From positions 1,376,001 to 1,440,000 of the forward strand of contig OZ219787.1 in assembly GCA_964291285.2 (NCBI GenBank): a stretch of DNA of 64,000 nt, in the 5' to 3' direction. Within the stretch, counting starts at the first letter, position 1, and each line of letters opens with the position of its first letter. This DNA is from Alphaproteobacteria bacterium (lineage in GTDB: Bacteria > Pseudomonadota > Alphaproteobacteria > Bin95). Positions 2,981-23,285 of the stretch are shown here, one piece after another. Below the pieces are notes generated by a model that did no database searches, was not told where the DNA came from, and was given only the letters and a program-made list of their open reading frames with translations. A program made the position numbers and the translations under genes.

Positions 2981-3858
2981 CCGGCGCGGTCGAGTGTCGC
3001 TATTACGGGCGCGACTTCACCGAAGATGAAATGGCGCTGCTGCGTGCCCTGATCGCCGATCCCGCCCCGCTCTCCCGCCGCGCCCTGTCGATCGAGTTCT
3101 GCCGGCGCATCGGCTGGCTCAAGCCCGACGGCGGACTGAAGGACATGATGGCCCGTGTCGCCATGCTCGCCATGCACAAGGACGGGCTCATCGAGCTGCC
3201 GCCGCCGAGGGGGCGGCAGCACCGGCCCAGGCCGGTCCAGTTCGGACCCGACACCGAACCGCCGCTGTTCCCGGCGCCCACGACCCTCGACGAGGTCCGC
3301 CCGCTCGACTTCCGCACCGTCGTGCACAGCACCCGCGAAGGCAGGCTCTGGAACGAGTTCATCGCCCGCTACCACTATCTCGGACACAAGACACTGGTCG
3401 GCGCCCAGATGCGCTATGCCGTCCACGACCGCAACGGCTGGCCCGTCGCCATGCTCGGCTTCTCCACCGCCGCATGGAAGCTCGCCCCGCGCGACCGCTT
3501 CATCGGATGGACGCCCGAACTGCGCGAAAAGAACCTTCCTCTCGTCGTCGACAACCCGCGCTTCCTGATCCTGCCCTGGATCGAGATCCCCAACCTCGGC
3601 TCGCACATCCTCGCCATCGTGCGCCGCCGCCTGCCCATCGACTGGACCGGGCGCTACAACATCACGCCGGTGCTCATCGAGACCTTCGTCGAAACGCCCC
3701 GCTACACCGGTGCCGTATACCGCGCATCGGGCTGGACCCGCGTCGGGACCACCCAGGGCCGGGGACGCTACGACAGGCACAACAAACGAGACCAGCCGAA
3801 AAAGGACATCTGGCTCCGCACACTGCGAAAAGACTGGCAACGCACCCTCAATCGGTAG
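2977..3858 (+). CDS. DUF4338 (Druantia DruA-like) domain protein
   Basis: WNEFIARYHYLG, RDRFIGW, NPRFLILPW, NLGSHIL, ETFVE...YRASGW..VG.TQGRG; ATGA overlap with transposase stop. Confidence 0.85.
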   Translation: MTGAVECRYYGRDFTEDEMALLRALIADPAPLSRRALSIEFCRRIGWLKPDGGLKDMMARVAMLAMHKDGLIELPPPRGRQHRPRPVQFGPDTEPPLFPAPTTLDEVRPLDFRTVVHSTREGRLWNEFIARYHYLGHKTLVGAQMRYAVHDRNGWPVAMLGFSTAAWKLAPRDRFIGWTPELREKNLPLVVDNPRFLILPWIEIPNLGSHILAIVRRRLPIDWTGRYNITPVLIETFVETPRYTGAVYRASGWTRVGTTQGRGRYDRHNKRDQPKKDIWLRTLRKDWQRTLNR

Positions 3859-3937
3859 AAGCACAACCGTCGCCCCGGTGTGAAAATGCCGACAAGCGGA
3901 TAACCCAATCCTCATCCCCAGGAACCCGAACGGATAC

Positions 3938-4504
3938 GTCGAAGGTGATGTGCCCGGACGACTCGCCTTGCGGCGCATGGACCAGACGGATGCGCTCGTC
4001 GGTGCAGAGCAGGCCCGTCGGAACGCCGGTTTCCCGCAGCAACCGTTCGAACCGGGCATGACGGCTCGCATTCCAGCCGGCATCGTCGGGCGGTTGGTCG
4101 AAATCGGCGCCCTCGTCCTCCCTCCGGACGAGCATCGTCCATTCTGCGTCCGCGTCCCGATCGCCCGGTACCGCCCAGGTGGGGGCGAGCATGACCTGCA
4201 ACTCCGGCAAGGCAATCTCGAGCGTCTCGCGATGATCGGACGCACTCACGAGATCGCCGTCCTCCCAGCCCAACCAATCCGTGAACACCCGGCGCAGATC
4301 GGGCGCTCGCCAGCGGACCGTGGCGCCCTCCCCATCCTCCTCGAGCAGTGCGCGAAAGTCGCGCTGGCGCCCCGAGACATTGCGGTCGGGGACCACCTGG
4401 GCGTCGACCATGACGGTCGGCGCGACGACGAGGCCCACCGGCTGAACGAAACCGAGCCATTCCTGATGGGCGAAGATCAGTTTGCCGCGTTCGCGATCCG
4501 CCAT
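3938..4504 (-). pseudogene. drmMI: N-terminal fragment of DISARM DrmMI-like adenine methyltransferase, truncated by the IS66 end
   Basis: HQEWLGFVQPVGLVV start, RFERLLRETGVPTGLL, RLVHAPQGESSG; directly downstream of drmD-like gene; homology stops at IR 3937. Confidence 0.65.
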
Positions 4505-4507
4505 GGT

Positions 4508-6885
4508 CTACCCCGTTCGCGGCCAGAGGTAGACGAGACCGAGCGGATCGACACGGACGGCGCGCACCTTGTACGCATCCGCGATCCGGGCCGGCTCGGT
4601 CTCAAGCTCGGTCTCGATGGCTTCCAGGCGCCGCGTCCAGGCCCGGCGGTCGGCTTCGCGCTGGCGCCGTTCGGCCTCGTCGAAATCGAACATCATCTGC
4701 CGGTCTTCCCTGCCGGCCGCCTCGGCGATCCTCCTGCGCTGGCGCTTGAGCAAATCGATCATGCTGTACTGTTCGGTTTTCGACCGTTGGGCAAGCCGTT
4801 CCTTCGCAAGCTCCGCGAAGTCGTCTGGCGGCGCTCCAGATGCGGAAGCAGATCGGCGATATCGGTTGGCGCCGAAGCCGCGAGACGCGTCCGGACCGGA
4901 TCGGGCACGCTGTTCCGCCCGGCTTCGTCGAGCGCCGTCTGCAAGGAAGCCAGGGTCGTCTGCTCGCCGGCCCGGCCGTAAGGCGCAAGTGCGTTCTGTC
5001 GCTGCACGGGATCGATCCAGCGCGCCGTCACCGGCACGATCTCCTCGTGCAGGCGTGCGGCGCATGGTCCGTAGACGGCGAGCCGGCCGAGCAGCACAAC
5101 GCGCGGGATTGCATTCGGGGCGACCGTAAGACAGGCCTTGGACAAGTCGTGGTGGATCAGGCCCTGCGCGGCGAACCGGCCAAGCAGGCGCCGGACCACA
5201 CGGTGTTCGAGATGCAGGTGCACGGCGTTTTCGCCAAGACGTCCGGTGTCTTCGAAAGCCACGGGCCGGATGGCCGCCCGACGGCGCCACGCGCCCAGGG
5301 ACTCGCCGCTCTGCCGTCGCGCGCGCAGAGAATCAAGTGCTGCGGTCCAGCCGGGATCGCTCGCAAGCGCACGGTCGGCGGCGGGAAAGACGAAGCGGCG
5401 CGGAGCGTCAGACACCGGCTTCTCCTGCCCGTCGGTCTCGGCGATTGCGGGAGCCCCGGCGAGCTCCAGGCTCATCGACAGGGCCTGACGGAACTGCGGC
5501 GCGGTAAGACCGATATGGGTGCGCGACCGCTCCAGGCGGGTGCGCAGGCTATCCACGTCCTCGCGCAGCCTGTCCTGGCGCAGACGCGCGTCCTCGAGCT
5601 CGTCCTCGACGGTGCGCCGCCGTTCTCCGGCCGACAGGTCCCGGATGGAGGCTGCGAGACCATCGATCCCGTCGCGGCGCATGCCTTCCTTGCCGATGGT
5701 CCGTGCAATGCGCGCTTCGAGCACCTTCGCGGCGCTGCCAAGCTCCTCGCGAATGCGTTCCACCTTGTTCACCAGCACCTGCAGGACACGGTCTTCCGGC
5801 CGTTGGACAAAGACGAAGTACCGGCAGAACACTTCGTCGGCGGGCTGCAGCTTGCGATCGATGCGGCCGTTGCGCTGGTCGAGACGGCTCGGGTTCCAGG
5901 GCAGGTCGAAGTGAAACAGATCATGACAGTGGCGCTGCAGATTGAGGCCCTCCCGTGCCGCGTCGGTGGCGATGAGAATGCGCAACGGGTGGTCGCCCGG
6001 CTCGGCATTGAAGGCGTGCTTGACGTTTTCCCGCCTGTGCCGGGAGGTCGTCCCCGTGAAGGTCGCGATCCGTTCGCCCGCCTTGTCAGAATGCGCGATG
6101 GCCTCGTTCAGGCAGCGCTCGAGCCAACGGCGCGTGTCCTCGTATTCGGTGAAGATGAGGAGGCGGCGCTCGTTCCACTGCGGAGGCCCGGCCCCGAGCG
6201 CGGATCGAACCGGGCACATGTTGGCGTCGACCCACTCGATGATCCTGTGTACGCGCGGGTCGGCGTCATGGCGTCTTGCCTCGGCGACCTCGCGCATCTC
6301 GTCGACGAGCGCGAGTTCGCGCATCAATGCGGTCCGTGCTTCCGCGCGTCGGCTGTCGGTCGATAGCGCTGTCGCCGCCGCCATCAGCTCGGCGAAGTCG
6401 AGTTCCGAAGGATCGGATCGTTCCGGATCGTCGGGCGCTTCGGCTTCGATATCGCCGTCACCACCGGTTGTGCCGTCGCCCGTTTCCTCGCCGACGATCA
6501 GCCGTTCGAAGTCGGCCTGCAAGTCGTTGGAAACCGCGATGGCTTCGGTGGATCGCTCCAGCGCGCGTTCCACGCTCCTGCGATGTACCGCGAGCGTCTT
6601 CGCGAAGGCCTCGATGGACGACAGCAGACGCTTTTGCAGCCCGCCGATCACCAGCGCGCCCGCAGCCTGCTTGGATCGTGTCTCGTCCTTCAGACGCTTT
6701 TCCCGCTCGGCCCGGTAGGCGTCGAGCATTCCTGGCAGGACGAGTTCGGGCGCGACCGGCGGCAGACCGTCGATCTTGACCGGAACCACGGTACGCCTGG
6801 GAAAGCCGCCTTCGAGATCCCGGATATCGGACTTGAGGCGGCGGACCAGCACTTCGTCGAGTTGTCCCTTCAGCACACGGACCCC
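4508..6885 (-). pseudogene. drmD: C-terminal part of DISARM SNF2-like helicase, 5'-truncated and frameshifted near 4830
   Basis: VRRLKSDI, LLIFTEYEDT, ATDAAREGLNLQ, DLPWNPSRLDQRNGRIDR; C-terminus GLVYLWP in second frame; Walker A/B half missing. Confidence 0.75.
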
Positions 6886-7002
6886 CCACCTTTGGTGCTA
6901 ACCATCTGACATGATTGTGGATTTTCTCCGTTTCCGGTGCAACCGGGCGCGGCATCGAACCCGGTCTTGCACGGGAGTGCAACAGATCGGGGAGCCGCAA
7001 TC

Positions 7003-8130
7003 TTGGCAGCCATCCGCCTCACCCAGCGCCGGGTCGATACCCTCCGGCCCCGCAAGTCCGTCCGCAATGTCCGGGACGCCGGACTGAAGGGCTACGGCGT
7101 GCGCGTCATGCCTTCGGGCGCGAAGCGCTACTTCATCCACAGCCAGCACCGGGGCCACCGGGTCTGGAAGATCGTCGGCGACGCGGCGGTCATGACCGAG
7201 GCCGACGCGCGCGCCCGCGCCCGGTCCATGCTGGCCGCTCTCCGCGACGACAGGGACATCGAAGCGGAAGCGTCCGGGGCCGCGCTGTTCGAGACCGTCG
7301 CCGAGGAGGTCTTCACGCGCTACGGCAGGCGCTGGAAGCCGCGCACGCTCGCCGTCAACCGCTGCTATCTCCACAACCAGATCCTGCCCTTCTTCGCGGG
7401 CCGACCGATCGCGGAGATCGACCGCGAGGAGGTGCAGCATTGGTTCCGCTCGCTGCATGCCACCCCGGCGGCGGCGAACCGGTCGGCGCCGATCCTGTCC
7501 GTCATCATGCAGCAGGCCGAAGCCTGGGGGTATCGCCCCGATGGCGGCAATCCCTGCAAGGGCATCCGGCGCTACCGGCAGAAGCGGTCGGAGCGCTTCC
7601 TGTCCCCGGAGGAATACCGCCGCCTCGGCAGGGCGCTGGACCGCCATGAGGCCCGGCAGCCCTTCCGGGTCGCGGCGCTCCGCCTGCTTCTGCTGACCGG
7701 CTGCCGCAAGTCGGAGATCGTCACCCTGGAATGGCGCTTCTACCGCGATGGCAGGCTCTACCTGGTTGATTCCAAAACCGGTCCCCGCACGGTCTGGCTT
7801 TGCGAGGCGGCGCGGGAGGTCCTCGACGGGCTGCCGCGTTCGTCGCGTTTCGTGTTCCCCATCGGAGACCGTCGCACGCCCTGGAGCTGGCTGGACGCCT
7901 TCTGGATGCAGTTGCGCGCCGAGGCGGGCCTCGAGGACATGCGCCTGCATGACATGCGCCACAGCTACGCCAGCATGGCGCTGTCGGGCGGCGAGACGAT
8001 CCGCACGGTGGGCCGGCTGCTGGGCCATGAGAAAGCGGCGACCACGCTGAAATACGCGCATCTCTCCGACGCGACGGTCAGGGAGACGGTCGAGGCGCTG
8101 GCGCCACTGCTCTCGGGAGCACAGTCGTGA
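7003..8130 (+). CDS. Tyrosine recombinase/integrase with arm-binding N-terminus (pair 1, gene A)
   Basis: TGCRKSE, DSKTG, HDMRH, LLGH, KYAH catalytic motifs; TTG start after GGGGAG. Confidence 0.9.
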   Translation: MAAIRLTQRRVDTLRPRKSVRNVRDAGLKGYGVRVMPSGAKRYFIHSQHRGHRVWKIVGDAAVMTEADARARARSMLAALRDDRDIEAEASGAALFETVAEEVFTRYGRRWKPRTLAVNRCYLHNQILPFFAGRPIAEIDREEVQHWFRSLHATPAAANRSAPILSVIMQQAEAWGYRPDGGNPCKGIRRYRQKRSERFLSPEEYRRLGRALDRHEARQPFRVAALRLLLLTGCRKSEIVTLEWRFYRDGRLYLVDSKTGPRTVWLCEAAREVLDGLPRSSRFVFPIGDRRTPWSWLDAFWMQLRAEAGLEDMRLHDMRHSYASMALSGGETIRTVGRLLGHEKAATTLKYAHLSDATVRETVEALAPLLSGAQS

Positions 8131-9241
8131 CGGGCAGGGCAAGGAAGGTCCGCCTGACGGATGCAGGCGTCGCAAGATTGAAGCCCGGCAGCACCGAATA
8201 CATCGTCAGGGACATTCGGGTTGCCGGTCTGGGCGTGCGGGTCCGTCCGTCCGGACATCGCGGTTTCGTGTGGCACGGGACCGTGAACGGCAGGATGGTG
8301 CGGACGACCGTAGGCGCGGTCGCGCTGATGACGGTGGAGGAAGCCCGGGTCGCATGCCGGGCCCTGCTGGACGGCTCGCATCCGCTCTGCGCCGCAGACC
8401 CTGCCGCCCGGACTGCCGTTCCCCTCTTCCGGGATTTCGTCATGGAGGACTGGTTGCCGGCACGCCGGGGTCATTGCAGCCCGGCCTGGGGCGAGCGCGT
8501 GGAGCATGTGATCCGGCACCGGCTTCTGCCCGCCTTCGGGGCGCTTCGCCTCGACCGCATCGCCAGGCCCCATGTCGAGCGCTGGTTCGACGCCATGAGC
8601 CGCAAGACGCCGGGCGCCGCCAACATGACGCTCGCCGTGTTGCGCCAGATCGTGACCGCCGCCAGGGCCGCTGGCCATGTCGGCGCCGATCCTGCCGCAG
8701 GCGTCAGGCCGAACCCGGGCCGGAAGATGACCCGCTTCCTGTCCGCAGAAGAGATCGCCAAGCTTCACCGTACCCTGGACCGGCTGGTGCGGGAACGGCC
8801 CTCGCGCCGCCCGCAGGCCGACATCATCCGCCTGCTGCTGCTGACCGGCTGCCGAAAAAGCGAAATCCTGACACTTCGATGGTCGGAGGTCGATGGCGAC
8901 GTGCTCAGGCTGGCGGAGACCAAGACGGGGCCGCGCACGGTATGGCTGAGCGGGGCGGCGCAGGCCGTGATCGTCCGCCAACCGCGAAACGGAAGCGCCT
9001 TCGTGTTTCCCTCGCCCGGAGACCCGGCAAGGCCGCAATCCGGCAATCTCGGCCTCTGGCTCCTGGCAAGGCGGGAAGCGGGCATCAAGGATGTCCGCCT
9101 GCACGATTTGCGCCATACCGTCGCAAGCCAGGCCGTGGCCCGCGGCGTGCCGCTGTGCGGCGCGACAATCAACTTGAGACTTCCGCGTCAATCAGGATGA
9201 GACGAGGGAAGGCGGCGGCCCGGAACGGAGGGAGGGCGTAG

Positions 9242-11691
<2,450 letters not shown>

Positions 11692-12422
11692 CCCGAGGCC
11701 ACCAGCTCGGCCGAACTGCCCTCACACTCACGGCCCGCGGGGATCGCCTCCGCGGGCCGCTTCATCTCCGGCCCACCGGACCGCCGCGACAATCAAAAAT
11801 CCTCGGAACCTGTCGCGCCGCGACAATCAAAACCAAAAACCGCTTGCAATCCCCGCCGCGCGACACAATCCTCTCCCTCGTCGCTGCCGCCGGGAATCTC
11901 ATCCTGATTGACGCGCGGCTCTCATCCAGATTGTCGCGCTATACCGCTGCCCACCGTCGCCCGGATGCTCGGTCATGCGCAGCCGACCATGACGCTCAGA
12001 TACGCCCATGTCGGGGATCATGAGGTCGAGGACGCCGCAGAGCGCATCGGGACGAGAATCGCGGCGGCCATGACAGCGCGCTGAAGACCCCCTTGCCGAA
12101 CATGCGTGGTCTCCCGGGCTGCGGCTGGCTTGACCATGAGGAGGTGGACCGGGCGGCATCGGAGGTAGAAGGCCGGCTGGATTCGCTCGGGTCTCCGGGT
12201 CCGGAGCGGCCGGGTTTCCGCTCCCTCACGCGGTCGAAGGACCCGTATCTGGCGATCCGTCCGGTTACGGATGAGCGTTCGCGCCTCCCGGCCGATCTGA
12301 GGTCGGAGACCGGGGTCGTGGTGAGGCGCGGGAATGAGTAGAAGATGTCGCCATCGGCCTGCGGCCCTTGTTCCCTCCACCGGCGCTGGCGGTGTTGTGT
12401 CTGCCTTGGCGGTTGGGGCGGT

Positions 12423-12902
12423 TCATCCCCCCCCCCCCCGCGCCAGCGGGGAACGCGCAATGAAGAGCATGAGTTCGGCCAAGGTGGACGGTTCATCCCC
12501 GCGCCAGCGGGGAACGCACTGCCACGGCTGGACCGTCTGCGCCGGCGGACGATACCCGCGAATCCGGGCCTTGGCGTGCCCGTGCATGACCGGATTTTCG
12601 ACGCAGACCCGCGGGATCGGGGCATTCAGGAATTCGGCGAACAGAGCGCAGGCATCCTGAAGCTCGCTCCAGAGATTGCACTCATGCAGCCAGCGCACGC
12701 CGCTGTTGGCCAGCCGCGTGCATGGCGGATGGGCGATCAGCATATCCCACTCGCCGGAGAGCAGGTCGCGCGCATCGCCGACAATGTGACGCTCGGGGCG
12801 GCCCTCTGTCTCCTCCAGGTCGCAGGACCAAGCGTCATGGCCGCGCCGGAGGAAGGCATCGCGGACGGTGCCGGAGTACTCGCAGGCGACCAAGACCCTC
12901 AT
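12423..12902 (-). pseudogene. Phage-like C5 cytosine methyltransferase N-terminal part (about 128 codons) inside the long spacer; frame reads on through repeat and spacer
   Basis: MRVLVACEYSG, AWSCDL, IAHPPCT (motif IV PC), ENP (motif VI); recognisable homology ends at QPWQ, exactly at repeat 12517. Confidence 0.7.
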
Positions 12903-13261
12903 TCCTGGCCGCCGAAGGGCTCATCGTGCTGCATATCCCGCGCATGCATCCAAGTGTCGTGCAGGCACTCCATATAGGGCTCGTCATACGGCTTTTTGGC
13001 CGCCGCAGCGTGTTTGAAATTGTCGTAGACGATGTCGGCCACCGCATTGGCGAGCAACTCTGCGAACTCCTTCCGGTGCAGCGTGGTGCGCCAAGCATAG
13101 TCGGCCTTTGGCGTGTGCTCAATCTCGTAGGGGTTTGTCGGCAAGTAGGCGGCGAGGACGGCGGTCAAGTGGGCTTCCGTGCGCGCCCGCACCAGCAGCA
13201 TGTCCTCATGCTCCCGGTGTTGCACTACAGAGATAAAGCCGAAGGGTGTGTAGAGCCACAT
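12899..13261 (-). CDS. Complete 120-aa phage-like hypothetical protein inside the long spacer
   Basis: MWLYTPFGFISVV...LLVRAR...ADYAWR...YDNFK; GGGAG upstream; ATGA coupling to the next ORF. Confidence 0.7.
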   Translation of the reverse strand: MWLYTPFGFISVVQHREHEDMLLVRARTEAHLTAVLAAYLPTNPYEIEHTPKADYAWRTTLHRKEFAELLANAVADIVYDNFKHAAAAKKPYDEPYMECLHDTWMHARDMQHDEPFGGQE

Positions 13262-13718
13262 GGTGTCATTTCTCCCAGATGTCGTCGGTTCATCCCCGCG
13301 CCAGCGGGGAACGCGGAACCCGGACAAGGACGCCGCCTATCAACGTCGGTTCATCCCCGCACGAGCGGGGAACACTCCTAATGATCTGCTCGTCCTCCGA
13401 TGGCAACCGGTTCATCCCCGCACGAGCGGGGAACACATTGAAAGGTCGAGTGCTAGCCAGCAAATGGCCGGTTCATCCCCGCACGAGCGGGGAACACGGG
13501 GGGAGGAACGCGGCGCTGGGGTTCCCCACCGGTTCATCCCCGCACGAGCGGGGAACACCTTCCATCCTGCCAATTGGTCGACGCCAGTACCGGTTCATCC
13601 CCGCACGAGCGGGGAACACCGTAAGCCTTCGGCGTAGACCGCCTGTCGCCTTTCTCCGGGATCTGGGAGGGTATGCGCTCGGATGTGGGCGCGCGTCGCA
13701 GGTGCCCACCAAGGATAA

Positions 13719-14138
13719 GTGGACACTATGCGGATGTGGGACGCAGCCGAGCATGCAGGCTCCGGGGTCGACGGTCGGGGGCGCCGCCTTCGCCGTCGGT
13801 GGAGCGAGGCGCGCAAGCGCCTGATCGTTGCGGAGAGCTACCAGCCCGGGGTTTCGGTTTCGGTGGTGGCGCGCCGACATGACGTGAACGCGAACCTGGT
13901 CTTCAAGTGGCGGGGCCAGTATCGGGAGCTGGCGCGCGTGGTGGGCGGCTTCGTCCCGGTGGTTGTCTCTTCGACGGAAGGGGCGGAGCCGGCGAAGCTG
14001 CTGCCGGCGCCGGAGGCCGAACCGTCTTCCTCCGGACGGATCGAGATTGCGCTGGCGGACGGCTCGCGCGTGACGGTCGACCGGGATGTGGACGCGGCGG
14101 CGCTGTCGCGGGTTCTCGGGGTTCTGGGGCGGCGATGA
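13719..14138 (+). CDS. tnpA: IS66 accessory HTH protein
   Basis: RRRWSEARKRLIVAES...VARRHDVNANLVFKWR. Confidence 0.9.
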   Translation: MDTMRMWDAAEHAGSGVDGRGRRLRRRWSEARKRLIVAESYQPGVSVSVVARRHDVNANLVFKWRGQYRELARVVGGFVPVVVSSTEGAEPAKLLPAPEAEPSSSGRIEIALADGSRVTVDRDVDAAALSRVLGVLGRR

Positions 14139-14482
14139 TCCCGGTTCCGAGCGGGGCGCGGGTCTGGCTTGCGACGGGCGTGACGGACATGCGTCGCGGG
14201 ATGAACACGCTGGCGCTGCAGGTCCAGCAAGGTCTCGGCCGCGATCCGCATGCGGGCGATCTCTTCATATTCCGCGGACGCAAAGGCGATCTCGTGAAGA
14301 TCCTCTGGACTGACGGGATCGGGACCTCGCTCTACGCCAAGCGTCTGGAGCGTGGCCGGTTCCCCTGGCCGGCTGCTTCGGGCGAGGCGGTGTCGATCAG
14401 CGCGGCGCAGCTTGGCTATTTGCTGGAAGGGATCGACTGGCGGAACCCGGTCCGGACCTGGCGGCCGTCGCGGGCCGGCTGA
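14135..14482 (+). CDS. tnpB: IS66 accessory protein
   Basis: MIPVPSGARVWLATGVTDMRRG...KRLERGRFPWP. Confidence 0.93.
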   Translation: MIPVPSGARVWLATGVTDMRRGMNTLALQVQQGLGRDPHAGDLFIFRGRKGDLVKILWTDGIGTSLYAKRLERGRFPWPAASGEAVSISAAQLGYLLEGIDWRNPVRTWRPSRAG

Positions 14483-14553
14483 CGGGCGGCAAATGGACTC
14501 ATCCGACAGGATTGTCATGGCGGCGGGGCGGTTGTTGTGATTCGCTTCCGGGC

Positions 14554-16200
14554 ATGCCGGACGGATCGGACATCGATGCTCTGAAGGCGGCGCTGGCTGC
14601 GGCGGAAGTCAAGGCGACCGAGGCCGAGGAGCGGGCCGCAGTTGCGGAGGCCGAGGCTTCCAACGCCGTGGCGAAGGTGTCGGACGCGGAGGCGCAGATC
14701 GCCTCCCTGAAGCTGATGATCGAGAAGCTCCGTCACGCGCTCTTCGGCCAACGATCGGAGCGCAAGCAGCGCCTTCTCGACCAGATGGAGCTCCAGCTCG
14801 ACGAGCTCGAGGCGAGCGCTACCGAGGACGAGTTGGCGGCCGAACAGGCGGCTACCGGCACGACGCAGGTCAAGGCGTTCACCCGCCGCCGCCGGTCCGG
14901 GCGCAAGCCGTTCCCCGAACATCTGCCGCGCGAGCGCGTGGTGGTGCCGGCGCCGAGTGCCTGTGAGTGCTGCGGCTCGCAGAAGCTCTCGAAGATCGGC
15001 GAGGACATCACCGAGACGCTGGAGGTCATTCCGCGCCAGTGGAAGGTGATCCAGACGGTGCGCGAGAAGTTCACATGCCGGGACTGCGAGAAGATCAGCC
15101 AGCCGCCGGCGCCGTTCCACCCGACGCCGCGCGGCTGGGCGGGCCCCAACCTGTTGGCGATGATCCTGTTCGAGAAGTATGGGACGCACCAGCCTCTGAA
15201 CCGCCAGCGCGACCGCTATGCGCGCGAGGGCGTCGATCTCAGCCTGTCGACCCTGGCCGACCAGGTGGGCGCCTGCACGGTGGCGCTGAGGCCGCTGCAC
15301 GACCTGATCGCAGACCATGTGCTGGCGGCCGAGCGTCTGCATGGCGACGACACGCCGGTGCCGGTTCTGGCCAGGGGCAAGACCGACACCGGGCGGGCCT
15401 GGGTCTATGTCCGCGACGACAGACCGTTCGGCGGTCCGGACCCGCCGGCGGCCCTGTTCCACTACTCGCGGAACCGCTCGGGCGATCATCCGGTCGAGCA
15501 TTTGCGGAGCTACGCCGGCATCCTGCAGGCCGACGCCTTTGCCGGATATAACCGGCTCTACGAGCCCGCCCGATCGCCGGGGCCCGTGACCGAAGCTGCC
15601 TGCTTCGCCCATGCGAGGCGCAAGTTCCACGAGCTCGCCGACATCGCGGCCGGCAAGAGGCGCGGCAGGAACGCGCCGCCGATCTCGCCGCTGGCGATGG
15701 AAGCCGTGAAGCGGATCGATGCGCTGTTTGACATCGAGCGCGGGATCAACGGCGAGATCGCCGAGCGCCGCCTCGCGGTGCGCCAGGAACTGAGCGCGCC
15801 GGTCCTGGCCGAACTCGAGACCTGGATGAAGGCCGAGCGCGCAAAGCTCTCCCGCCATTCCCCCGTGGCCAAGGCCATGGACTACATGCTCAGGCGATGG
15901 GACCGCTTCGCCCGCTTCCTCGACGATGGGCGCATCTGCCTGTCAAATAATGCCGCTGAGAGGGCGCTCAGAGGTATTGCCCTGGGTCGGAAGTCATGGC
16001 TGTTCGCCGGCTCCGACCGCGGCGGCAGGCGCGCCGCAGCCATGTACACCCTGATCGGCACCGCCAAGCTCAACGATGTCGATCCCCACGCCTGGCTCGC
16101 CGACGTTCTCGGCCGGATCGCGGGAACCCCGCAGAACCGGCTCGACGAACTTCTTCCCTGGAATTGGGTTCCGGAGAAGATGCTCGATCAAGCCGCATAA
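14554..16200 (+). CDS. tnpC: IS66 transposase
   Basis: LFGQRSE, CECCG, HGDDTP, QADAFAGY, CFAHARR, SNNAAER, ELLPWNW. Confidence 0.95.
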   Translation: MPDGSDIDALKAALAAAEVKATEAEERAAVAEAEASNAVAKVSDAEAQIASLKLMIEKLRHALFGQRSERKQRLLDQMELQLDELEASATEDELAAEQAATGTTQVKAFTRRRRSGRKPFPEHLPRERVVVPAPSACECCGSQKLSKIGEDITETLEVIPRQWKVIQTVREKFTCRDCEKISQPPAPFHPTPRGWAGPNLLAMILFEKYGTHQPLNRQRDRYAREGVDLSLSTLADQVGACTVALRPLHDLIADHVLAAERLHGDDTPVPVLARGKTDTGRAWVYVRDDRPFGGPDPPAALFHYSRNRSGDHPVEHLRSYAGILQADAFAGYNRLYEPARSPGPVTEAACFAHARRKFHELADIAAGKRRGRNAPPISPLAMEAVKRIDALFDIERGINGEIAERRLAVRQELSAPVLAELETWMKAERAKLSRHSPVAKAMDYMLRRWDRFARFLDDGRICLSNNAAERALRGIALGRKSWLFAGSDRGGRRAAAMYTLIGTAKLNDVDPHAWLADVLGRIAGTPQNRLDELLPWNWVPEKMLDQAA

Positions 16201-17638
16201 GCCGGCTCACGCTCAAAACCACCCCGCTCCGCACGCACTCGCCGCAAAGAAGGGCCTACCTACCCCTGCGGTCTTCGGCGGACGCATACGGAACACCTCA
16301 CGAATGAGCCTGGCGGCATGGAGATGAGCGGTTCATCCCCGCACGAGCGGGGAACACGTCTCCTCATCGAGCGCCAGGTCGTCGCCGAACGGTTCATCCC
16401 CGCACGAGCGGGGAACACCCTGGCCGTGATGCTGCTGGGCTTGCTCGCGGCGGTTCATCCCCGCACGAGCGGGGAACACTTCTTCCACATGCCTTCAGCA
16501 TGGATTTCCGCCGGTTCATCCCCGCACGAGCGGGGAACACTAGGCTACCTGCGTCTGGGCGATGAGCGCGTTCGGTTCATCCCCGCACGAGCGGGGAACA
16601 CTCGGTCGGATCGGGAATCGACGGCCCGCTGCCCGGTTCATCCCCGCACGAGCGGGGAACACCCCCTGCCCTCGCCCAGCGCAACCATGGCCGCCGGTTC
16701 ATCCCCGCACGAGCGGGGAACACGCGCACGCGACTAGAGGCGGTGTGTGCTCCCCCGGTTCATCCCCGCACGAGCGGGGAACACTATCAGCGCCGCGTGG
16801 AGGTCCAAATTGCGGGCGGTTCATCCCCGCACGAGCGGGGAACACCAGCGCGCCGGCGGGGTAGTATTTCGCCGTGTCGGTTCATCCCCGCACGAGCGGG
16901 GAACACGGGCGCGGCGCGGCTGCGATCCTCAAGGGCGGCGGTTCATCCCCGCACGAGCGGGGAACACCCGTTGCTGAGCGTGACGATCCCGCTCAAGCGC
17001 GGTTCATCCCCGCACGAGCGGGGAACACGCGAGGTCGGCGGCGGTGGTGGTGGTGTCGGTCGGTTCATCCCCGCACGAGCGGGGAACACTCGGCGAGGTA
17101 GGCCGCGTCGCGCTCGGCGCGCGGTTCATCCCCGCACGAGCGGGGAACACCATGGTCTCGCGTTGTCCGCCGACGCCACGATCGGTTCATCCCCGCACGA
17201 GCGGGGAACACGAAAGCGGAGGATGTGGTTTGGGGGCTGGAAGCGGTTCATCCCCGCACGAGCGGGGAACACGTGGTGGCGGTGGTGGCGGTGGCGGTGC
17301 TGCTCGGTTCATCCCCGCACGAGCGGGGAACACGCCGTCAGAACTTTGTAGCCGGCGGCCTCGGCCGGTTCATCCCCGCACGAGCGGGGAACACCTCCAG
17401 CCGATGTTGCGGAAATTGATTTGGGCCGGTTCATCCCCGCACGAGCGGGGAACACCGGCGATAGCGATGCTGCTCATATCTGGTCTCCGGTTCATCCCCG
17501 CACGAGCGGGGAACACGTGTGCTGTCTGGCGTGCTGTGCGTCTGTCTGTGGTTCATCCCCGCACGAGCGGGGAACACTGCGAAAAAAAAGTTTTCAACGA
17601 TTTCAACGACGGTTCATCCCCGCACGAGCGGGGAACAC

Positions 17639-17699
17639 TCTTTCTGGAAGAGCTTGATATGGCAGGCATTTTACGATGTCAAACAGCGCACCGGCCAAA
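17639..17699 (-). promoter_or_regulatory. Short CRISPR leader with IHF-like site
   Basis: AT-richer 61 bp between cas2 stop and first repeat; minus strand TATCAAgctcTTC at 17647-17659, close to WATCAANNNNTTR. Confidence 0.65.
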
Positions 17700-18957
<1,258 letters not shown>

Positions 18958-18961
18958 GCGT

Positions 18962-19666
18962 TCAGAGCCTCCGGATCAACATGAGCCCGCAACCGAAGGC
19001 TTTGGCCGGACCGAATCCGCGCGCGATGGCGGACGGCAACAGATCCGGATCCTGCACCTCCAGAACGCCTTCGAAATCAAGGGAAGAGAACGACAAGGCG
19101 CTTTTGCCGGCACCGCGGTCGATGCGGTGCTGGCGGTAACCCTCGCACAGCAACTCTTCCCCCCGTATCTCGAAACCGGCCTTGCAGCCCTGCCTGGCGA
19201 GCCAGTCGAAGCCCTTTCCCCGGATGGCGGCCATGCGGTGTTCGGCGCGCGAACCGTCCCGCAGCGGGTGAAGCGTATCCATCACGACATCGTGCCGGGG
19301 CGCATGGCGCTTGCCCGGCTCCTTTGCCTTGCGGACCGTCGGGTTGGCCCGCAGCGAGAACCGCAGCCGGTCGCCTGCCGCCAGGACGGGGGCGAAGGTT
19401 TTGGGTTCGTCGATCTCGAACAAGCCATGACGGTCTTCAGGAGGCCGCGCCGAAAGCACAAGAAAGGCGCCGTCATCCATCCGTCGCCAGAGAAAATCGC
19501 GGCGGCGGTCCGGCCCGTCTGCAAACAAGGACCAGACCAGGCGCCGGTCCACATCGACGGAACGGTGGCTGCCGGGTCCGGCGTCCTGTTGCAGCAGGGG
19601 CATCAGGGCCTTGACGGACGCAGCGCTTCCGAGCCGGACACGGGACAGCCAGCAGGCGTCAGTCAT
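18962..19666 (-). CDS. cas6e: Cas6e/CasE crRNA endonuclease
   Basis: FSLRANPT; glycine-rich loop GFGPAKAFGCGLM. Confidence 0.95.
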   Translation of the reverse strand: MTDACWLSRVRLGSAASVKALMPLLQQDAGPGSHRSVDVDRRLVWSLFADGPDRRRDFLWRRMDDGAFLVLSARPPEDRHGLFEIDEPKTFAPVLAAGDRLRFSLRANPTVRKAKEPGKRHAPRHDVVMDTLHPLRDGSRAEHRMAAIRGKGFDWLARQGCKAGFEIRGEELLCEGYRQHRIDRGAGKSALSFSSLDFEGVLEVQDPDLLPSAIARGFGPAKAFGCGLMLIRRL

Positions 19667-20427
19667 TCCCCATCCCCCAGGTCGATCACCACCCGCTCTT
19701 CCCGGTCTCTAAACTGCCATCGTGTGCGGCTTCCGATGCCGTCGCGCCGACGTTCGAGGAAACCGCCCGCCGGCGCTCCCGGGGCATCGGCATCAAAAGC
19801 GATCTCCCGCCCGGCGGGCAAGCCGCGGCGAAGCCGTTCCAACGCCCATGCTTCCAACGCGCCGGGCCCTTCGCCGCCGTTTTCGGCGGCAACTGCCGGG
19901 CGCCGAAGCGCAAGGGCGTCCATCAAATTGGCCGTTTCGACGATTTCCGGGTCGAGGGGCAGTCCGAGCGGAGCCGATTTGCGGCCCAGGTAGAGCGTGA
20001 AACGGGGCCGGCGCAGCGCTGCGGCGATCTCATCCAGATCGACCGCGCCGCCGGAGCGCAACCAGAGTGCGGCCGTGAAACAGGCATCCGAACGCCATTC
20101 CCGGCTGGAAAGCACCGTGTTGATCCGTTCGGCCTCCAGTTCCTCACGGCGAGTCTCAAAGCTCTGGCCCCGCCGCGCCGCGGGAGTCTGAGCCGTATGG
20201 TAATCGATGAAAGGGCGGCCGGGCGCGTCTGTCCTGACGGCGTAATGCAACCCCTCTTCCAGCGCACGATGGGCATCATCGTCGCTCCGTTCGATCCCCA
20301 GCGCGGCGGCAACCAGCCCGAGGACGGCGGAGCGTCCCGGCCGCGACCAGCCCATGCGTCGCTCCCCGATGGCAATCTCGCCCAGGGAACACATCGGCGC
20401 GTAGAGCGTGAAGAGCAGGAACCGCAT
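19663..20427 (-). CDS. cas5e: Cas5e/CasD
   Basis: MRFLLFTLYAPMCSLG, PGRSAVLGLVAAALG, DYHT, LYLGRKS. Confidence 0.95.
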   Translation of the reverse strand: MRFLLFTLYAPMCSLGEIAIGERRMGWSRPGRSAVLGLVAAALGIERSDDDAHRALEEGLHYAVRTDAPGRPFIDYHTAQTPAARRGQSFETRREELEAERINTVLSSREWRSDACFTAALWLRSGGAVDLDEIAAALRRPRFTLYLGRKSAPLGLPLDPEIVETANLMDALALRRPAVAAENGGEGPGALEAWALERLRRGLPAGREIAFDADAPGAPAGGFLERRRDGIGSRTRWQFRDREERVVIDLGDGE

Positions 20428-20431
20428 GGCG

Positions 20432-21484
20432 TCAGGCCAGGGCGAAATCGATGAATTCCGCGAGGGTCCCTTCGCCTTTCGCAACGTCCACAGACAGGCG
20501 ATCCGCGGCGCAGGGCCCGTAGGCCCGGTCGAGTTTGTCCCTGAACTCCTCCAGCGCATGCACCGAAGCCTCGCCCTGGTCAGCGCCGGAGACGGGCTTC
20601 AGGAATGCGGCGGCGAGACTGCGCGGCTGGGCATTTCCCTTTTCTGCTAGTGCGTAGAAGGCGCGTGCGTGGCTGGCGAAGCTTGCCTGCTTGCCGCGCG
20701 GTGCCACTGTCGCGGCGGCCTCGGCCAGCGCGGCGACGCTTGCGTTGCCCACGACCCGGTCCCCGCCGAGGTTTTCCAGCAGCAATCCCCGGTCCACGCA
20801 GAGATAGAGGTAGAATACGCCCGCGCCGAACTCCTGGACGCCGACGAATCCCGCTCCGGCGTCTTCCGGCTCGTCACGCGACTTGAGGTCGTCCACGGCG
20901 GTATAGTAGTCGTCTTCCGCGATCGCGCGGTGGGTGGTGATGGCGTGCGCCACTTGCACCGCGGCCTCGCGGTTGAATTTGGGGTCATCCGCCAGCATCC
21001 GGCCGAACATGGCGATATCCGCGGCCGTATCGGTTCGGCGCAGTACGTCCTCGGGTTCAGGTGCTGCCGGTTCTTCGCCAGCGAGTGCGCGATCCGCCAG
21101 CGCGAACGCTTCCGCGCGCTCCTCCGGCGAAACGAAGGCCAGTTGTTCGATGAAGGCCGGGTTCCGGTCCGTCTCCGGCTTCAGCTTTCCGAAGACATCG
21201 GCAATTTTCCGGGCGGCCGCGAGGGCTTCCTGTTCGCCTATGCCGCCCTCGATCAGGTGCCGGTGCAGATCCTCACCGAGCCGCTGCGTGCGTCTGGCGA
21301 GATGGCCGTCAAGCTTGCTCTGGAATACATCGGAGGTCCGCCAGGCGCGCTTCAGGCTTTGCGAGGAGATGCGCAGGCGCGGGGCGCCGCCGAACAGGAC
21401 GCTTTTCGGCCGGCCGGTATCGTCGCGGTTCAGGTTGGACGGGCCGAAGGCCGTCAGCAGGTGCAATTGCAGGAAATCGCTCAT
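20432..21484 (-). CDS. cas7e: Cas7e/CasC
   Basis: SNLNRDDTGRPK, RISSQSLKRAWR, DIAMFGRM, QVAHAITTH, DYYTAVDD. Confidence 0.97.
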   Translation of the reverse strand: MSDFLQLHLLTAFGPSNLNRDDTGRPKSVLFGGAPRLRISSQSLKRAWRTSDVFQSKLDGHLARRTQRLGEDLHRHLIEGGIGEQEALAAARKIADVFGKLKPETDRNPAFIEQLAFVSPEERAEAFALADRALAGEEPAAPEPEDVLRRTDTAADIAMFGRMLADDPKFNREAAVQVAHAITTHRAIAEDDYYTAVDDLKSRDEPEDAGAGFVGVQEFGAGVFYLYLCVDRGLLLENLGGDRVVGNASVAALAEAAATVAPRGKQASFASHARAFYALAEKGNAQPRSLAAAFLKPVSGADQGEASVHALEEFRDKLDRAYGPCAADRLSVDVAKGEGTLAEFIDFALA

Positions 21485-22023
21485 GCAGCGGAGTCTCCCT
21501 GTGGAGCGGTTGAAGAGTTGGATGGCGCGGCGCGACCCACACCGTAATAGTTGAAGATCCAGTGCTTCCTTACGCCGTCGCCCCAATAGAGGACGGATCG
21601 GGACAAGTCCCGCACGTTGACTGTCCCGCCGGCCAGACGCACGAGGCGGCGCATCGCATCCATGAGCTCATCGTTACGCTCGATCTGCAGCAGGCGACGG
21701 AAGCGACCTTCGGACATGACCGCTTCCGCATCGTCGAGCGACCTGCGACCTACGGCGCGGGCGACGGGCCGGTCCTCATCATCCCGGACCCACGCGAGAA
21801 TGCCGGCAAGCGCGGCCACCCGGTCCTTGTTGTCAAAATGGGGCAAGCGCTGGATCAGGCGCAAAGTAGCCGTCTCCCGCATGGCTTCGAGCGGCGTTCC
21901 AGCCCGGCGCAAATGTGCAAGCGCCGCTTTCTGCGAACCGGTCTGCACGCCGTTCTCCGGGTTCAAATCCCGCCACCATGCAGCGGCGATGGAACCGGCC
22001 CCTTTGGGAATCGAATCGGTCAT
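21481..22023 (-). CDS. casB: Cse2/CasB small subunit
   Basis: ALAHLRRA, MSEGRFRRLL, LYWG...W...YY; position between cas8e and cas7. Confidence 0.9.
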   Translation of the reverse strand: MTDSIPKGAGSIAAAWWRDLNPENGVQTGSQKAALAHLRRAGTPLEAMRETATLRLIQRLPHFDNKDRVAALAGILAWVRDDEDRPVARAVGRRSLDDAEAVMSEGRFRRLLQIERNDELMDAMRRLVRLAGGTVNVRDLSRSVLYWGDGVRKHWIFNYYGVGRAAPSNSSTAPQGDSAA

Positions 22024-22670
22024 GCGGCCTCCTGCCTGTTGACGGCGCCGACAGGTTCGGGCGCCGGGATGCCGAGTTCGCCGAACAGCGCCCTGCCGTC
22101 CTTGCCCCGCCCGCCGAGTGCAAGATGCAGATAGAAGCGCGCCCGGACATGGCGTTCCATGCTCCGGTTCTCCAGTGCCTCGCCGGGTGCGACTTCGTCG
22201 AAAAGGCGGAGCGCGGGCGCTTCCATCCGCTTCGCCCAAGCAAGGCGCGCTTCCAAACTCGGATCGTCGGGATCTGCGCCGCTGCGCGTGCGAGTTGCCG
22301 TTTGGACGTCGAAGAATGCCTTGCGGAAAGGTGCCTCGGTCTCCCGGAAGAAGCATTCCGCAATAAAGCCGTAGTCGCCGGCTGCATCGGCAGGCCGGTC
22401 GTAGAGAGCTGACTTCACCGCGCGAACGAGCAGCCGCGAAACCGTTTCCGCGCCCCTGACTGCCTGATGAATGAAGCTCTCCAGACACTCGCGCGTTTCC
22501 TCTTCCGCGAGCAGCGGTAGAGGCCATTCCCCCTCGATCCATGCGCGCGCCTTCATATTGTCCATGTCGTAACCGAAGGCGGTGAACCGGGGCTTTTCGT
22601 CCATCGCGAACTGTCCGCGTTCGGCTATAACATGGCGGATAACCCGTGCGGGCTGCCGCAACCCGTCGGC
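22020..22670 (-). pseudogene. casA: C-terminal fragment of Cse1/CasA (Cas8e), truncated by ISAs1
   Basis: AFGYDMDNMKARAW motif; only about 216 codons remain before the IS end at 22671. Confidence 0.85.
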
Positions 22671-22732
22671 CAGGGAAAATTTTTAGTCGAACCGCGGGCT
22701 TTGTCTGAGTGATGTCGGTCTGGCTGCCGGTG

Positions 22733-23144
22733 TTTGCCGTGAAAATTGTTGGGGATCGGGCGCAAAAAAAACCTCCCCGCCAAAGCACTGCTCCCGAGGC
22801 GTCCGATACTCGCCATCTGCGGCGCCCGTCTTGCGGACCCTGACCGGTAGGCAACCCCGTAAAAGCCCGAAGTCCCGCCCGCGCGGCCGGCACCTGTTTT
22901 CATGATACGGGGTGGCCGACCCGCCCGACAATGAAGGTTTTGCCGTGAAAATTGTTGGGGATCGGGCGCAAAAAAAACCTCCCCGCCAAAGCACTGCTCC
23001 CGAGGCGTCCGATACTCGCCATCTGCGGCGCCCGTCTTGCGGACCCTGACCGGTAGGCAACCCCGTAAAAGCCCGAAGTCCCGCCCGCGCGGCCGGCACC
23101 TGTTTTCATGATACGGGGTGGCCGACCCGCCCGACAATGAAGGT
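22733..23144. repeat. Tandem duplication of a 206-bp unit
   Basis: 22733-22938 and 22939-23144 appear identical on reading. Confidence 0.92.
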
Positions 23145-23285
23145 TTTGGGGAACCCCAGACGTTTCTGGCCGCCGTCATGGTGGTTTCTTGATGCCGCGG
23201 TCCAGTGTTTTCGTCCTCGACGGGCGCAGTTGTTTTGCTGCGCCGTTCTTCGGCCCGAGCCTGTATTGCGGTGGGGGGTGGGGTA

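Follow-up and report, generated by a model that had tools for sequence, protein, structure and literature searches.

A 768-bp fragment of a phage, or of a similar mobile element, occupies one spacer slot of a type I-E CRISPR array in the chromosome of an alphaproteobacterium, where it is real and inherited. It sits between two identical, intact repeats, and both of its junctions coincide exactly with the repeat borders. Quite possibly, Cas1-Cas2 integrated it as an over-long prespacer of which only one end had been trimmed. The array lies in a 64,000-nt stretch of contig OZ219787.1 (hereafter the window), and its features are listed in Table 1.

Table 1. Features of the CRISPR locus, in window coordinates.
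Feature	Position	Strand	Length	Remark
Terminal (oldest) repeat	12419-12456	-	38 nt	R' type, degenerate
Oldest spacer	12457-12488	-	32 nt
Intact R' repeat, trailer side of insert	12489-12517	-	29 bp
Phage-derived insert in spacer slot	12518-13285	-	768 bp
DNA-methyltransferase-like gene	12518-12902	-	first 128 codons (~60%)	flush cut at repeat
120-aa ORF, complete	12899-13261	-	120 aa	large uncharacterised family with phage members
Segment upstream of the 120-aa ORF	13262-13285	-	24 nt	reading of sequence
Intact R' repeat, leader side of insert	13286-13314	-	29 bp	identical to 12489-12517
One 32-nt spacer, then five main-type repeats and four 32-nt spacers	13315-13619	-
IS66-family element	13621-16289	+		at repeat/spacer junction; separate, ordinary event
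Younger array part, 22 main-type repeats, 21 spacers (32 nt each)	16329-17638	-
Leader region between cas2 and first repeat	~17639-17699	-		by position only
Type I-E cas2, cas1, cas6e, cas5, cas7, cse2	17700-22893	-
cas2	17700-18023	-
cas1	18004-18957	-
cse1, C-terminal part	~22206-22664	-

The CRISPR locus

The locus combines 29-bp palindromic repeats and 32-nt spacers with cas1, cas2, cas6e, cas5, cas7 and cse2, and thus belongs to type I-E. Profile searches recovered Cas2 (Cas_Cas2CT1978, E 2.5e-34), Cas1, Cas5 and, by TIGR02548, Cse2, and the matches to CRISPR_assoc and CT1975 are those that we take to be Cas6e and Cas7, respectively. A degenerate repeat pattern matched 29 times in the window, against 0 matches expected from shuffles. 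The minus strand encodes cas2 and cas1, and the leader lies between them and the array; the array was accordingly read on that strand, which places the insert in the second-oldest slot. All 27 of the other uninterrupted spacers measure 32 nt, as does the spacer split by the IS66-family element once reconstructed, and the preliminary description of this DNA, which had set two identical repeats around 768 bp against 32-bp spacers elsewhere, was accurate in this respect. The three oldest repeats form a variant, R': 3 of its positions do not match the main repeat, and forms intermediate between the two are absent. In the terminal one, a run of 13 C instead of 4 brings the length to 38 nt.

Cas1 and cas2 are intact and adjoin the leader. 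The operon contains neither an intact cse1 (cas8e) nor cas3: the N-terminal part of cse1 and cas3 were located on another contig (C2:533987-534994 and C2:453701-454954, respectively), and a transposase gene is found at the cse1 break. With cse1 split, cas3 on another contig and an IS66-family element within the array, the CRISPR locus is decaying.

Assembly check

Two separately assembled contigs cross the whole repeat-insert-repeat structure. The first, a Logan contig of run X1, has 1182 nt and a depth of 107, covers 12194-13374 with 0 mismatches apart from one more C in the terminal repeat, and is flanked by contigs of depth 98-108. The second, from run X2, has 973 nt and a depth of 8.9, covers 12401-13374 and differs from the window by one SNP, at 13268; X1 and X2 are runs of two samples from one study, and the source sample itself may be that of X1, which keeps the two contigs from being fully independent. 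An assembler path through phage reads via two spacers, the artefact against which the preliminary description had warned, is a known risk in short-read metagenome contigs and may hold for some of the similar inserts surveyed below (e.g., L020). For the insert itself it is hardly credible, because contigs from two runs span the structure at chromosomal depth; moreover, the genome is assembled in only 5 contigs (6.1 Mb), and no extra depth over the insert hints at free phage.

Anatomy and foreign origin of the insert

The repeat on either side of the insert reads CGGTTCATCCCCGCGCCAGCGGGGAACGC, with the two copies identical at 29 of 29 positions and in register. The insert has no second copy in the genome, and its GC content (63.3%) is close to the mean of the spacers (64.1%) and below that of the genome (68.1%). 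It carries no IS ends, no target duplication and no transposase gene, and the inverted repeats that reach its ends are only the CRISPR repeats' own palindromes, in agreement with what had been described at the outset. An origin as an IS or transposon was accordingly rejected. Long inserts of that kind, such as the IS66-family element here or the IS21 in survey locus L067, likewise break the 61-bp spacing of an array, but they carry transposase genes, of which the insert has none. The ends of the IS66-family element also show terminal inverted repeats and an 8-bp target duplication (GGAACACC, at 13613-13620 and 16290-16297) and lie off the repeat border, none of which applies to the insert.

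The cut points are arbitrary relative to the genes: one follows codon 128 of the methyltransferase-like gene, the other lies 24 nt before the 120-aa ORF. Those 24 nt contain a GGGAGA motif resembling a ribosome site and read as the last 5 codons and stop of an upstream gene. The stop of the 120-aa ORF overlaps the start of the methyltransferase-like ORF (ATGA), and the ORF coordinates thus confirm both the complete first ORF and the coupling proposed earlier. The second ORF, of 128 codons plus 1 nt, runs straight into the repeat, and the C-terminal part of its gene is missing from the window and from the genome; the insertion of a mini-array into a prophage methyltransferase gene was rejected on that account. 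Promoter and terminator consensus searches of the insert, as well as Rfam and tRNA scans of its region, returned nothing.

The methyltransferase-like ORF matched phrog_757 'DNA methyltransferase' (positions 15-147 of 247, E 2.5e-37) and shares 59% identity with a 215-aa protein of Sinorhizobium phage phi3LM21 over residues 1-135 of the latter. Pfam returned no family at E up to 0.1 and phrog_757 was the sole match. The gene is methyltransferase-like and cut flush at the repeat, as first described; the C5 subtype assigned to it then finds no support in these matches. The 120-aa protein belongs to no Pfam or PHROG family, and the protein atlas placed it among 'hypothetical protein' clusters only. 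Its fold is predicted with confidence (pLDDT 94.8), with no match in the PDB at E up to 0.001 and two unnamed viral proteins matched in BFVD. An exhaustive HMMER search gave 2860 homologues, the best non-self ones at 46-49% identity. The gene upstream of the methyltransferase gene was unrelated to the 120-aa ORF in all three relatives considered, so it is the ATGA overlap alone that points to a native adjacency of the pair. The phrog_757 match, the phage and plasmid homologues and the phage members of the 120-aa family bear out the earlier view of the insert as phage-like foreign DNA.

Search for a source

Neither a collinear source nor a close relative of the insert turned up in the collections searched. 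Phage records gave 11 weak partial matches, the best with 51% coverage and 64.6% identity and restricted to the methyltransferase part; plasmids gave 6 partial matches, none of them collinear, and 61 related genomes only chance-level matches of 30-45 nt. Queries of IMG/VR and of GTDB genomes with the 120-aa protein confirmed no source, and a word search of 5.8 billion proteins recovered only the protein itself. None of the species representatives of the genus or the family carries the array. Protospacers of the other spacers were likewise absent from the genome itself, from phage records and from 37 genomes of the family; the PAM was therefore assumed to be AAG, a choice based on type I-E systems in general and on the survey described below.

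Integration of an over-long prespacer

In type I-E adaptation, Cas1-Cas2 attaches the 3'-OH ends of a prespacer at the two edges of a single repeat, and this repeat becomes duplicated. Exact borders with an identical repeat on each side are the pattern expected from such an integration, and they argue for it here together with the arbitrary cut points and the lack of the missing gene end anywhere in the genome, the absence of the transposon hallmarks that the IS66-family element shows in the same array, the foreign and unique character of the insert at a spacer-like GC content, and the intact cas1 and cas2 beside the leader. We infer the enzyme, the one-sided failure of trimming and the timing of the event along the following lines. 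One 3' end of the prespacer would have been processed normally, while the other would have kept a long tail that escaped exonuclease trimming; the distal 3'-OH of this tail would then have made the second attack on the repeat, and gap filling would have produced the second R' repeat and a copy of the tail. At the time of the event, R' would have been leader-proximal, early in the history of the array. The insert would not yield a usable crRNA, and it may owe its persistence to its position, with a single older spacer downstream.

The I-E integration complex is a strict length ruler, and this, along with the uniform 32 nt of the remaining spacers, argues against the integration by Cas1-Cas2 that we tentatively favour. 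We know of no integration by Cas1-Cas2 of a fragment of this size, and phrase searches of the literature returned no report of one of ~768 bp. The difference between R' and the main repeat, with no intermediate, also indicates that the trailer module may have a separate history, for example through recombination with another array or a phage-borne mini-array. Of the Cas1-type capture envisaged in the preliminary description, the exact borders and the identical flanking repeats are thus observed, and the mechanism is our reading of them.

Internal-PAM test and survey of similar inserts

The exact borders and the collinear phage fragment would also result if two adjacent, co-oriented 32-nt spacers had recombined with the same target phage, by double crossover or gene conversion, so that the intervening repeat was replaced by the 704 bp between the two protospacers. 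Primed adaptation tends to yield neighbouring, co-oriented spacers against one phage. Such a recombination predicts the PAM, assumed to be AAG, with ATG also accepted, 33-35 nt from the trailer-side end of the insert. At this position (-35 to -33) the window reads TCG, with no AAG one base to either side, which speaks for integration by Cas1-Cas2 and disfavours, for the window, the two-spacer alternative that had been offered at first. It follows that normal processing would have taken place at 13285, on the leader (PAM) side. The recombination would further need two crossovers of 32 bp each, a length at the lower limit for homologous recombination. A strain bearing the leader-side 32 nt as a spacer is not hinted at in run X2 either, where most of these nucleotides fall in one 61-base depth bin, which kept the depth of the insert-bearing strain, a comparison to be read in the knowledge that contigs drop rare variants; at the trailer-side end, contigs that carry the repeat confound the X2 bins, which are uninformative on that end as a spacer. 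All considered, we regard the recombination of two spacers as an unlikely origin of the insert.

A small survey covered 152 locus-strands with at least two repeats of this family, in which inserts of 100-7000 bp were sought between bordering repeats differing by at most 1 nt. Thirteen inserts qualified, 2 of which were IS, and the other 11 include the window. Most of the examples come from short-read metagenome bins, in which chimeric paths through spacers are possible, and the only long-read example, L157, is a remnant locus without type I-E cas2. Phage-type genes occur in 6 of the 11 inserts (the window, L020, L124, L174, the 1491-bp insert of L180 and, weakly, L157). Source copies of the L157, L180 and L124 inserts were absent from their own genomes, and close relatives were found neither in IMG/VR for the L020 and L180 inserts nor in phage records for those of L157 and L020.

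AAG was present at -35 to -33 in 3 of the 11 inserts (~0.2 expected, P ~0.001), against 0 of 20 in a mirror control, and ATG stood at the trailer-side PAM position in one of the 10 inserts other than the window. These counts indicate that a class of PAM-anchored inserts exists, which is in itself a point for the recombination of two spacers. That process would, however, give AAG in nearly all 11, and the mixture of anchored and non-anchored inserts fits a failure of trimming on one side of the prespacer, whichever side that is. We put forward, as a possible but on balance doubtful generalisation, that type I-E Cas1-Cas2 occasionally integrates kilobase-scale DNA, PAM-anchored at only one end, when one 3' tail of the prespacer escapes trimming.

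Most of the survey inserts lie at trailer ends, and some arrays have a single isolated repeat at their distal end. Such lone repeats, the HicB-like gene in the L167 insert, which could be ordinary flank, and the mobile-element debris that makes up the trailer flank of the window are all compatible with two independent arrays, namely the main one and a two-repeat mini-array (12419-12517), separated by decayed chromosome or prophage. For the window we consider this very improbable, given that the bordering repeats are identical and in register, that the phage gene stops exactly at the repeat border and that no further array was found in the genome. In addition, 12419 is marked as the array end by a related strain in X2 that has the same flank and the same terminal repeat; its copy lacks the C expansion (loose end at 12430).

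Implications

Should Cas1-Cas2 be able to insert DNA the size of a gene while duplicating the repeat exactly, its molecular ruler would not be absolute and CRISPR arrays would be an occasional entry route of phage genes into chromosomes. Giant spacers carrying whole phage genes would then recur across the arrays of many taxa and survive mainly at trailer ends, where few spacers are silenced by them. They would have been overlooked because array finders cap spacer length, and callers with such a cap would split these arrays or miss them. If spacer-guided recombination were the true cause instead, the inserts would represent, fixed in nature, the products of a process that is not known to have been described outside laboratory staphylococci. 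The internal-PAM test sorts PAM-anchored from non-anchored inserts by sequence alone and is applicable to all long-read genomes. The further suggestion that the array works as a gene-capture device found no support: one of the two genes is truncated, the insert lacks any promoter or terminator consensus, the IS66-family element lies between leader and insert, and the interference module is broken.

Comparison with known systems

In E. coli, the last base of the type I-E repeat is a G that derives from the AAG PAM. The last repeat base on the transcribed strand is G in the window as well, and, as in canonical acquisition, one repeat ends as two copies that adjoin the foreign DNA exactly on either side. 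Canonical acquisition differs in adding 32-33 bp, whereas the insert has 768 bp with a whole gene and part of another and no normal crRNA. The normal prespacer is described as ~33 bp long, with a 3' overhang of about 4 nt (PMC9699676).

The insert also resembles, in phage DNA that is joined to an array at a spacer and directly abuts a repeat, the spacer-guided recombination between phages and CRISPR loci that Varble et al. reportedly described in staphylococci in 2019, in which single crossovers are said to let phages carry CRISPR loci. That work is not known to include a fixed, kilobase-scale insert in a chromosomal array, and the window is without the internal PAM that it would lead one to expect.

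Prophage integration into CRISPR repeats is documented for PhiAP1.1 of Streptococcus pyogenes, where a whole prophage with an integrase entered a type II-A array, using an 8-bp att core that is part of the repeat (10.1101/2020.10.09.333658). Phage DNA between two repeat copies and a disrupted array are common to both cases; PhiAP1.1 differs from the 768-bp fragment in being complete and in having an integrase, and the window insert, with its flush-cut gene, has neither an integrase nor phage ends beside an att site within the repeats. The insert could nevertheless be the relic of a larger element that entered via the repeat, by site-specific integration as in PhiAP1.1 or by homologous recombination with a phage-borne repeat or mini-array, and was later mostly deleted. 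Two tandem tyrosine integrase genes just past the trailer would suit such an origin, yet they are part of a defence island that also contains DruA and a helicase, and an IS21 interrupts one of the two. A gene cut flush at a repeat is, moreover, unlike an att junction or the product of an internal deletion, the collinear, ATGA-coupled genes leave no internal junction visible, and no att-like hybrid is present inside the insert.

Virus-borne mini-arrays and solitary repeat units, reportedly described by Medvedeva in 2019 and Camara-Wilpert in 2023, consist of repeats within phage genomes; the window shows the reverse, a phage fragment within a chromosomal array beside cas genes. A variant of the relic explanation derives the R' trailer module from a phage-borne mini-array, and the dissimilarity of R' and the main repeat agrees with it, while the exact R' sequence was found in 0 of 172 fetched loci apart from the window's own. 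Taken in either form, a relic of this kind seems to us improbable. In its favour, this repeat family does occur on 52 IMG/VR viral contigs, as single repeats or mini-arrays, and phage DNA and such repeats therefore do meet.

Array structure and support for the insert

The array in the window is the only type I-E array of the 6.1-Mb, five-contig genome, and the degenerate repeat pattern matched 29 times in the window where 0 matches were expected. In agreement with the preliminary description, identical repeats (CGGTTCATCCCCGCGCCAGCGGGGAACGC) enclose the 768-bp insert, while every other uninterrupted spacer (27/27) is 32 nt long. Because the cas genes lie on the minus strand directly past the repeat closest to cas2, the array is read on that strand, and the insert therefore occupies the second-oldest slot. 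The three oldest units carry a variant repeat that differs from the main one at three positions, and the terminal copy contains a run of 13 C (12427-12439) vs. 4 C normally, and 14 C in a contig of X1, a public sequencing run. A second run of the same study, X2, holds a related, more abundant strain with the same trailer flank (old end) and a terminal repeat lacking the C expansion; its loop, GCGCGAGC, differs by one change from either of the repeat types found in the array.

Both junctions of the insert are crossed by single, separately assembled contigs of these two public runs: in X1 by 1182 nt (12194-13374; depth 107, 0 mismatches; flanking contigs at depth 98-108), and in X2, a different sample, by 973 nt (12401-13374; depth 8.9, one SNP at 13268). 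Read depth over the insert is not raised in a way that would suggest free phage. These contigs give good support, if not entirely independent support, since X1 may be the source sample of the genome and both runs come from one study. An assembly artefact, named earlier as the reading to adopt should no single read span repeat, insert and repeat, is hardly credible.

Features of the array, its insert and its surroundings (C2, another contig of the same genome)
Feature	Position	Strand	Remark
First tyrosine integrase gene	6937-8130
Second tyrosine integrase gene	8127-9200 plus 11908-12084		IS21-interrupted; istB at 10852-11691
221-bp element	12111-12331		trailer flank
75-bp element	12315-12389		just outside terminal repeat
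Terminal repeat	12419-12456		variant
Oldest spacer	12457-12488
Repeat	12489-12517		variant
Insert	12518-13285		768 bp
Second ORF	12902..12518	minus	128 codons; ATGA overlap with 120-aa ORF; end flush with repeat
120-aa ORF	13261..12899	minus	complete
Ribosome-site-like motif and apparent last codons of upstream gene	within the 24 nt ahead of 120-aa ORF	minus
Repeat	13286-13314		variant
IS66-family element	13621-16289		at repeat/spacer junction, between leader and older array part
HTH_Tnp_1 ORF	13719-14138		in IS66-family element
DDE_Tnp_IS66 ORF	14512-16200		in IS66-family element
Newest spacer	17578-17609
cas2	17700-18023	minus	adjoins array beyond repeat 17610-17638
cas1	18004-18957	minus
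cas6e, cas5, cas7, cse2		minus	same side of array as cas2/cas1
cse1, C-terminal part	within 22206-25082
Transposase gene	23286-25082		at cse1 break
cas3	C2:453701-454954
cse1, N-terminal part	C2:533987-534994

Gene content of the insert

The sequence bears out the complete 120-aa ORF and the coupled ORF cut at the repeat. The latter matches phrog_757 "DNA methyltransferase" (positions 15-147 of 247, E 2.5e-37) and shares 59% identity with residues 1-135 of a Sinorhizobium phage phi3LM21 protein (215 aa). Its earlier designation as C5-methyltransferase-like thus stands for the methyltransferase-like part, by the phrog_757 match, and not for the C5 subtype, for which there was no Pfam match. The missing C-terminal part of this gene is absent from the window and from the genome. 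For the 120-aa protein, 2860 matches at E ≤ 0.001 (best non-self identity 46-49%) make up a large unnamed family, with members in five phage records; the protein's predicted fold is confident (pLDDT 94.8) and resembles two unnamed viral proteins, with no match among solved structures at E ≤ 0.001. Three of three relatives of the methyltransferase gene were preceded by a gene unrelated to the 120-aa ORF, hence the case for native adjacency of the pair comes down to the ATGA overlap and to both ORFs starting at the usual first residue of their family.

The insert is unique within its own genome at DNA and protein level, and its GC content (63.3%) is close to that of the array spacers (64.1%) and below that of the genome (68.1%). 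That it has no IS ends was confirmed by the absence of terminal inverted repeats, and a search of the insert for promoter and terminator consensus found none. Two arrays separated by decayed DNA would be a very improbable account of this structure. No source phage or close relative was found among phage records, plasmids, 61 related genomes, IMG/VR, GTDB genomes and protein collections.

Mobile elements and decay of the system

An IS66-family element accounts for the sole other long gap in the array (13620-16328). Its 8-bp target duplication reads GGAACACC (13613-13620 and 16290-16297), and the spacer split by the element adds up to 32 nt once rejoined. The trailer flank is made up of multi-copy short elements and an integrase gene into which IS21 has inserted. 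Past the trailer, a defence-island-like stretch (2869-12084) holds a DruA-domain ORF, a helicase and two tandem tyrosine integrase genes. The 75-bp element, with at least 25 genome copies at 87-92% identity, resembles a miniature mobile element or a solitary IS end.

The type I-E system is decaying and its interference is broken: of cse1, the locus retains just the C-terminal part, with a transposase gene at the break, while its N-terminal part and cas3 lie on C2, about 80 kb apart. A further copy of the 221-bp element lies some 600 bp from this displaced N-terminal part of cse1. Nothing supports the earlier idea of the array as a "gene-capture device", given that one gene is truncated, IS66 sits between leader and insert, and interference is broken.

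Long inserts in related arrays

The core of the repeat family was scanned in IMG/VR (52 contigs) and in GTDB species genomes (at least 120 loci of 8 kb each). Among the matches listed, 152 locus-strands with two or more repeats contained 20 N-free inserts of 100-7000 bp between consecutive repeats; in 13 of the 20 the flanking repeats differed at no more than 1 nt, and two of these 13 were IS elements (IS66 in the window, IS21 in L067). The other 11 include the window insert. In several survey inserts, as in the window, open frames reach the very edge.

Survey inserts other than IS elements, flanked by repeats with no more than 1 nt of difference
Insert	Length (bp)	Content
L020	4123	head-closure and head-tail adaptor genes
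L124	1372	Phage_Mu_F fragment
L157	2017	weak methylase match; 65-nt match to phage methyltransferase
L174	500	PBECR3 domain
L180 A	1491	phage major tail protein fragment
L180 B	1326	no match
L167	816	HicB-like
L091	307	no match
L127	139
L181	509

Ordinary flanking DNA may account for the L167 insert. L180 is a cas2-adjacent 38-repeat array in a metagenome bin, with its two long inserts (1145-2470 and 3537-5027) between intact repeats. L157 comes from a 6.58-Mb single-contig assembly without type I-E cas2, and its array is a remnant. At 2761-3285, an ORF with a Cas3 HD domain (E 1e-20) stops roughly 20 nt short of the first of the three repeats of this array, the frame reading into the repeat, with no leader or other cas genes in between; as in the window, a gene is cut off flush at a repeat, this one being the cell's own DNA.

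If an insert arose by recombination of a phage with two ordinary spacers, its last 32 nt (crRNA sense) would have been a spacer, whose PAM, assumed to be AAG, would be kept inside the insert at -35..-33, which allows a test without the source. Among the 11 non-IS inserts of the matches listed, AAG occurs there in L020, L157 and L167, ATG in L127 and neither in seven; against an AAG background of 0.4-2.5% in the inserts, the binomial P for 3/11 is ~0.001, and the mirror position gave 0/20. This excess indicates that a PAM-anchored class exists and that the test has power, although most survey loci come from short-read metagenome bins, in which an assembly chimera running through a spacer would produce an identical PAM signature. 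With TCG at this position, the window insert is, on its sequence, outside that class.

Possible origin of the insert

Cas1-Cas2 is, to our knowledge, the sole activity that joins arbitrary 3' ends exactly to both repeat borders with duplication of the repeat. An over-long prespacer could have one end processed and the other left with a long untrimmed 3' tail before integration by Cas1-Cas2; an untrimmed PAM-side tail would leave an internal AAG, an untrimmed tail on the other side no internal PAM. Since such a one-sided tail yields either class of insert, and no other such activity is known to us, we tentatively favour this origin for the window insert.

Phage-CRISPR recombination was reportedly treated by Varble et al. 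in 2019. Recombination of a phage with two ordinary spacers, the alternative offered in the preliminary description, appears unlikely: an internal PAM would be due in nearly every case, whereas it occurs in 3-4 of the 11 inserts among the matches listed, and the window has TCG instead. Less probable still is that the insert was left over from repeat-mediated entry or stems from a phage-borne mini-array; prophage integration into type II-A CRISPR repeats is described in a preprint (10.1101/2020.10.09.333658). The remaining weight falls to unknown causes. An exact-phrase search of an open-access subset of the literature returned no report of gene-sized (long, giant or oversized) spacers or of arrays broken by phage genes, a phenomenon that may nonetheless have been published.

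The window insert occupies a last or second-last slot, as do those of L124 (after repeat 71/72), L167 (48/49), L157 (2/3, plus a degenerate terminal repeat), L181 (12/13) and one of L180 (36/38); the other L180 insert (18/38) and L127 (10/14) lie further in, in a small sample whose 8-kb loci lose the leader-side part of arrays. Tolerance would plausibly explain the trailer-end position, as only crRNAs downstream of the insert would be blocked. The 52 IMG/VR viral contigs with this repeat family (L014-L065) carry mostly mini-arrays of 2-9 repeats or single repeats, and in L065 degenerate copies lie 1.7 and 2.5 kb apart within a 41-kb viral contig.
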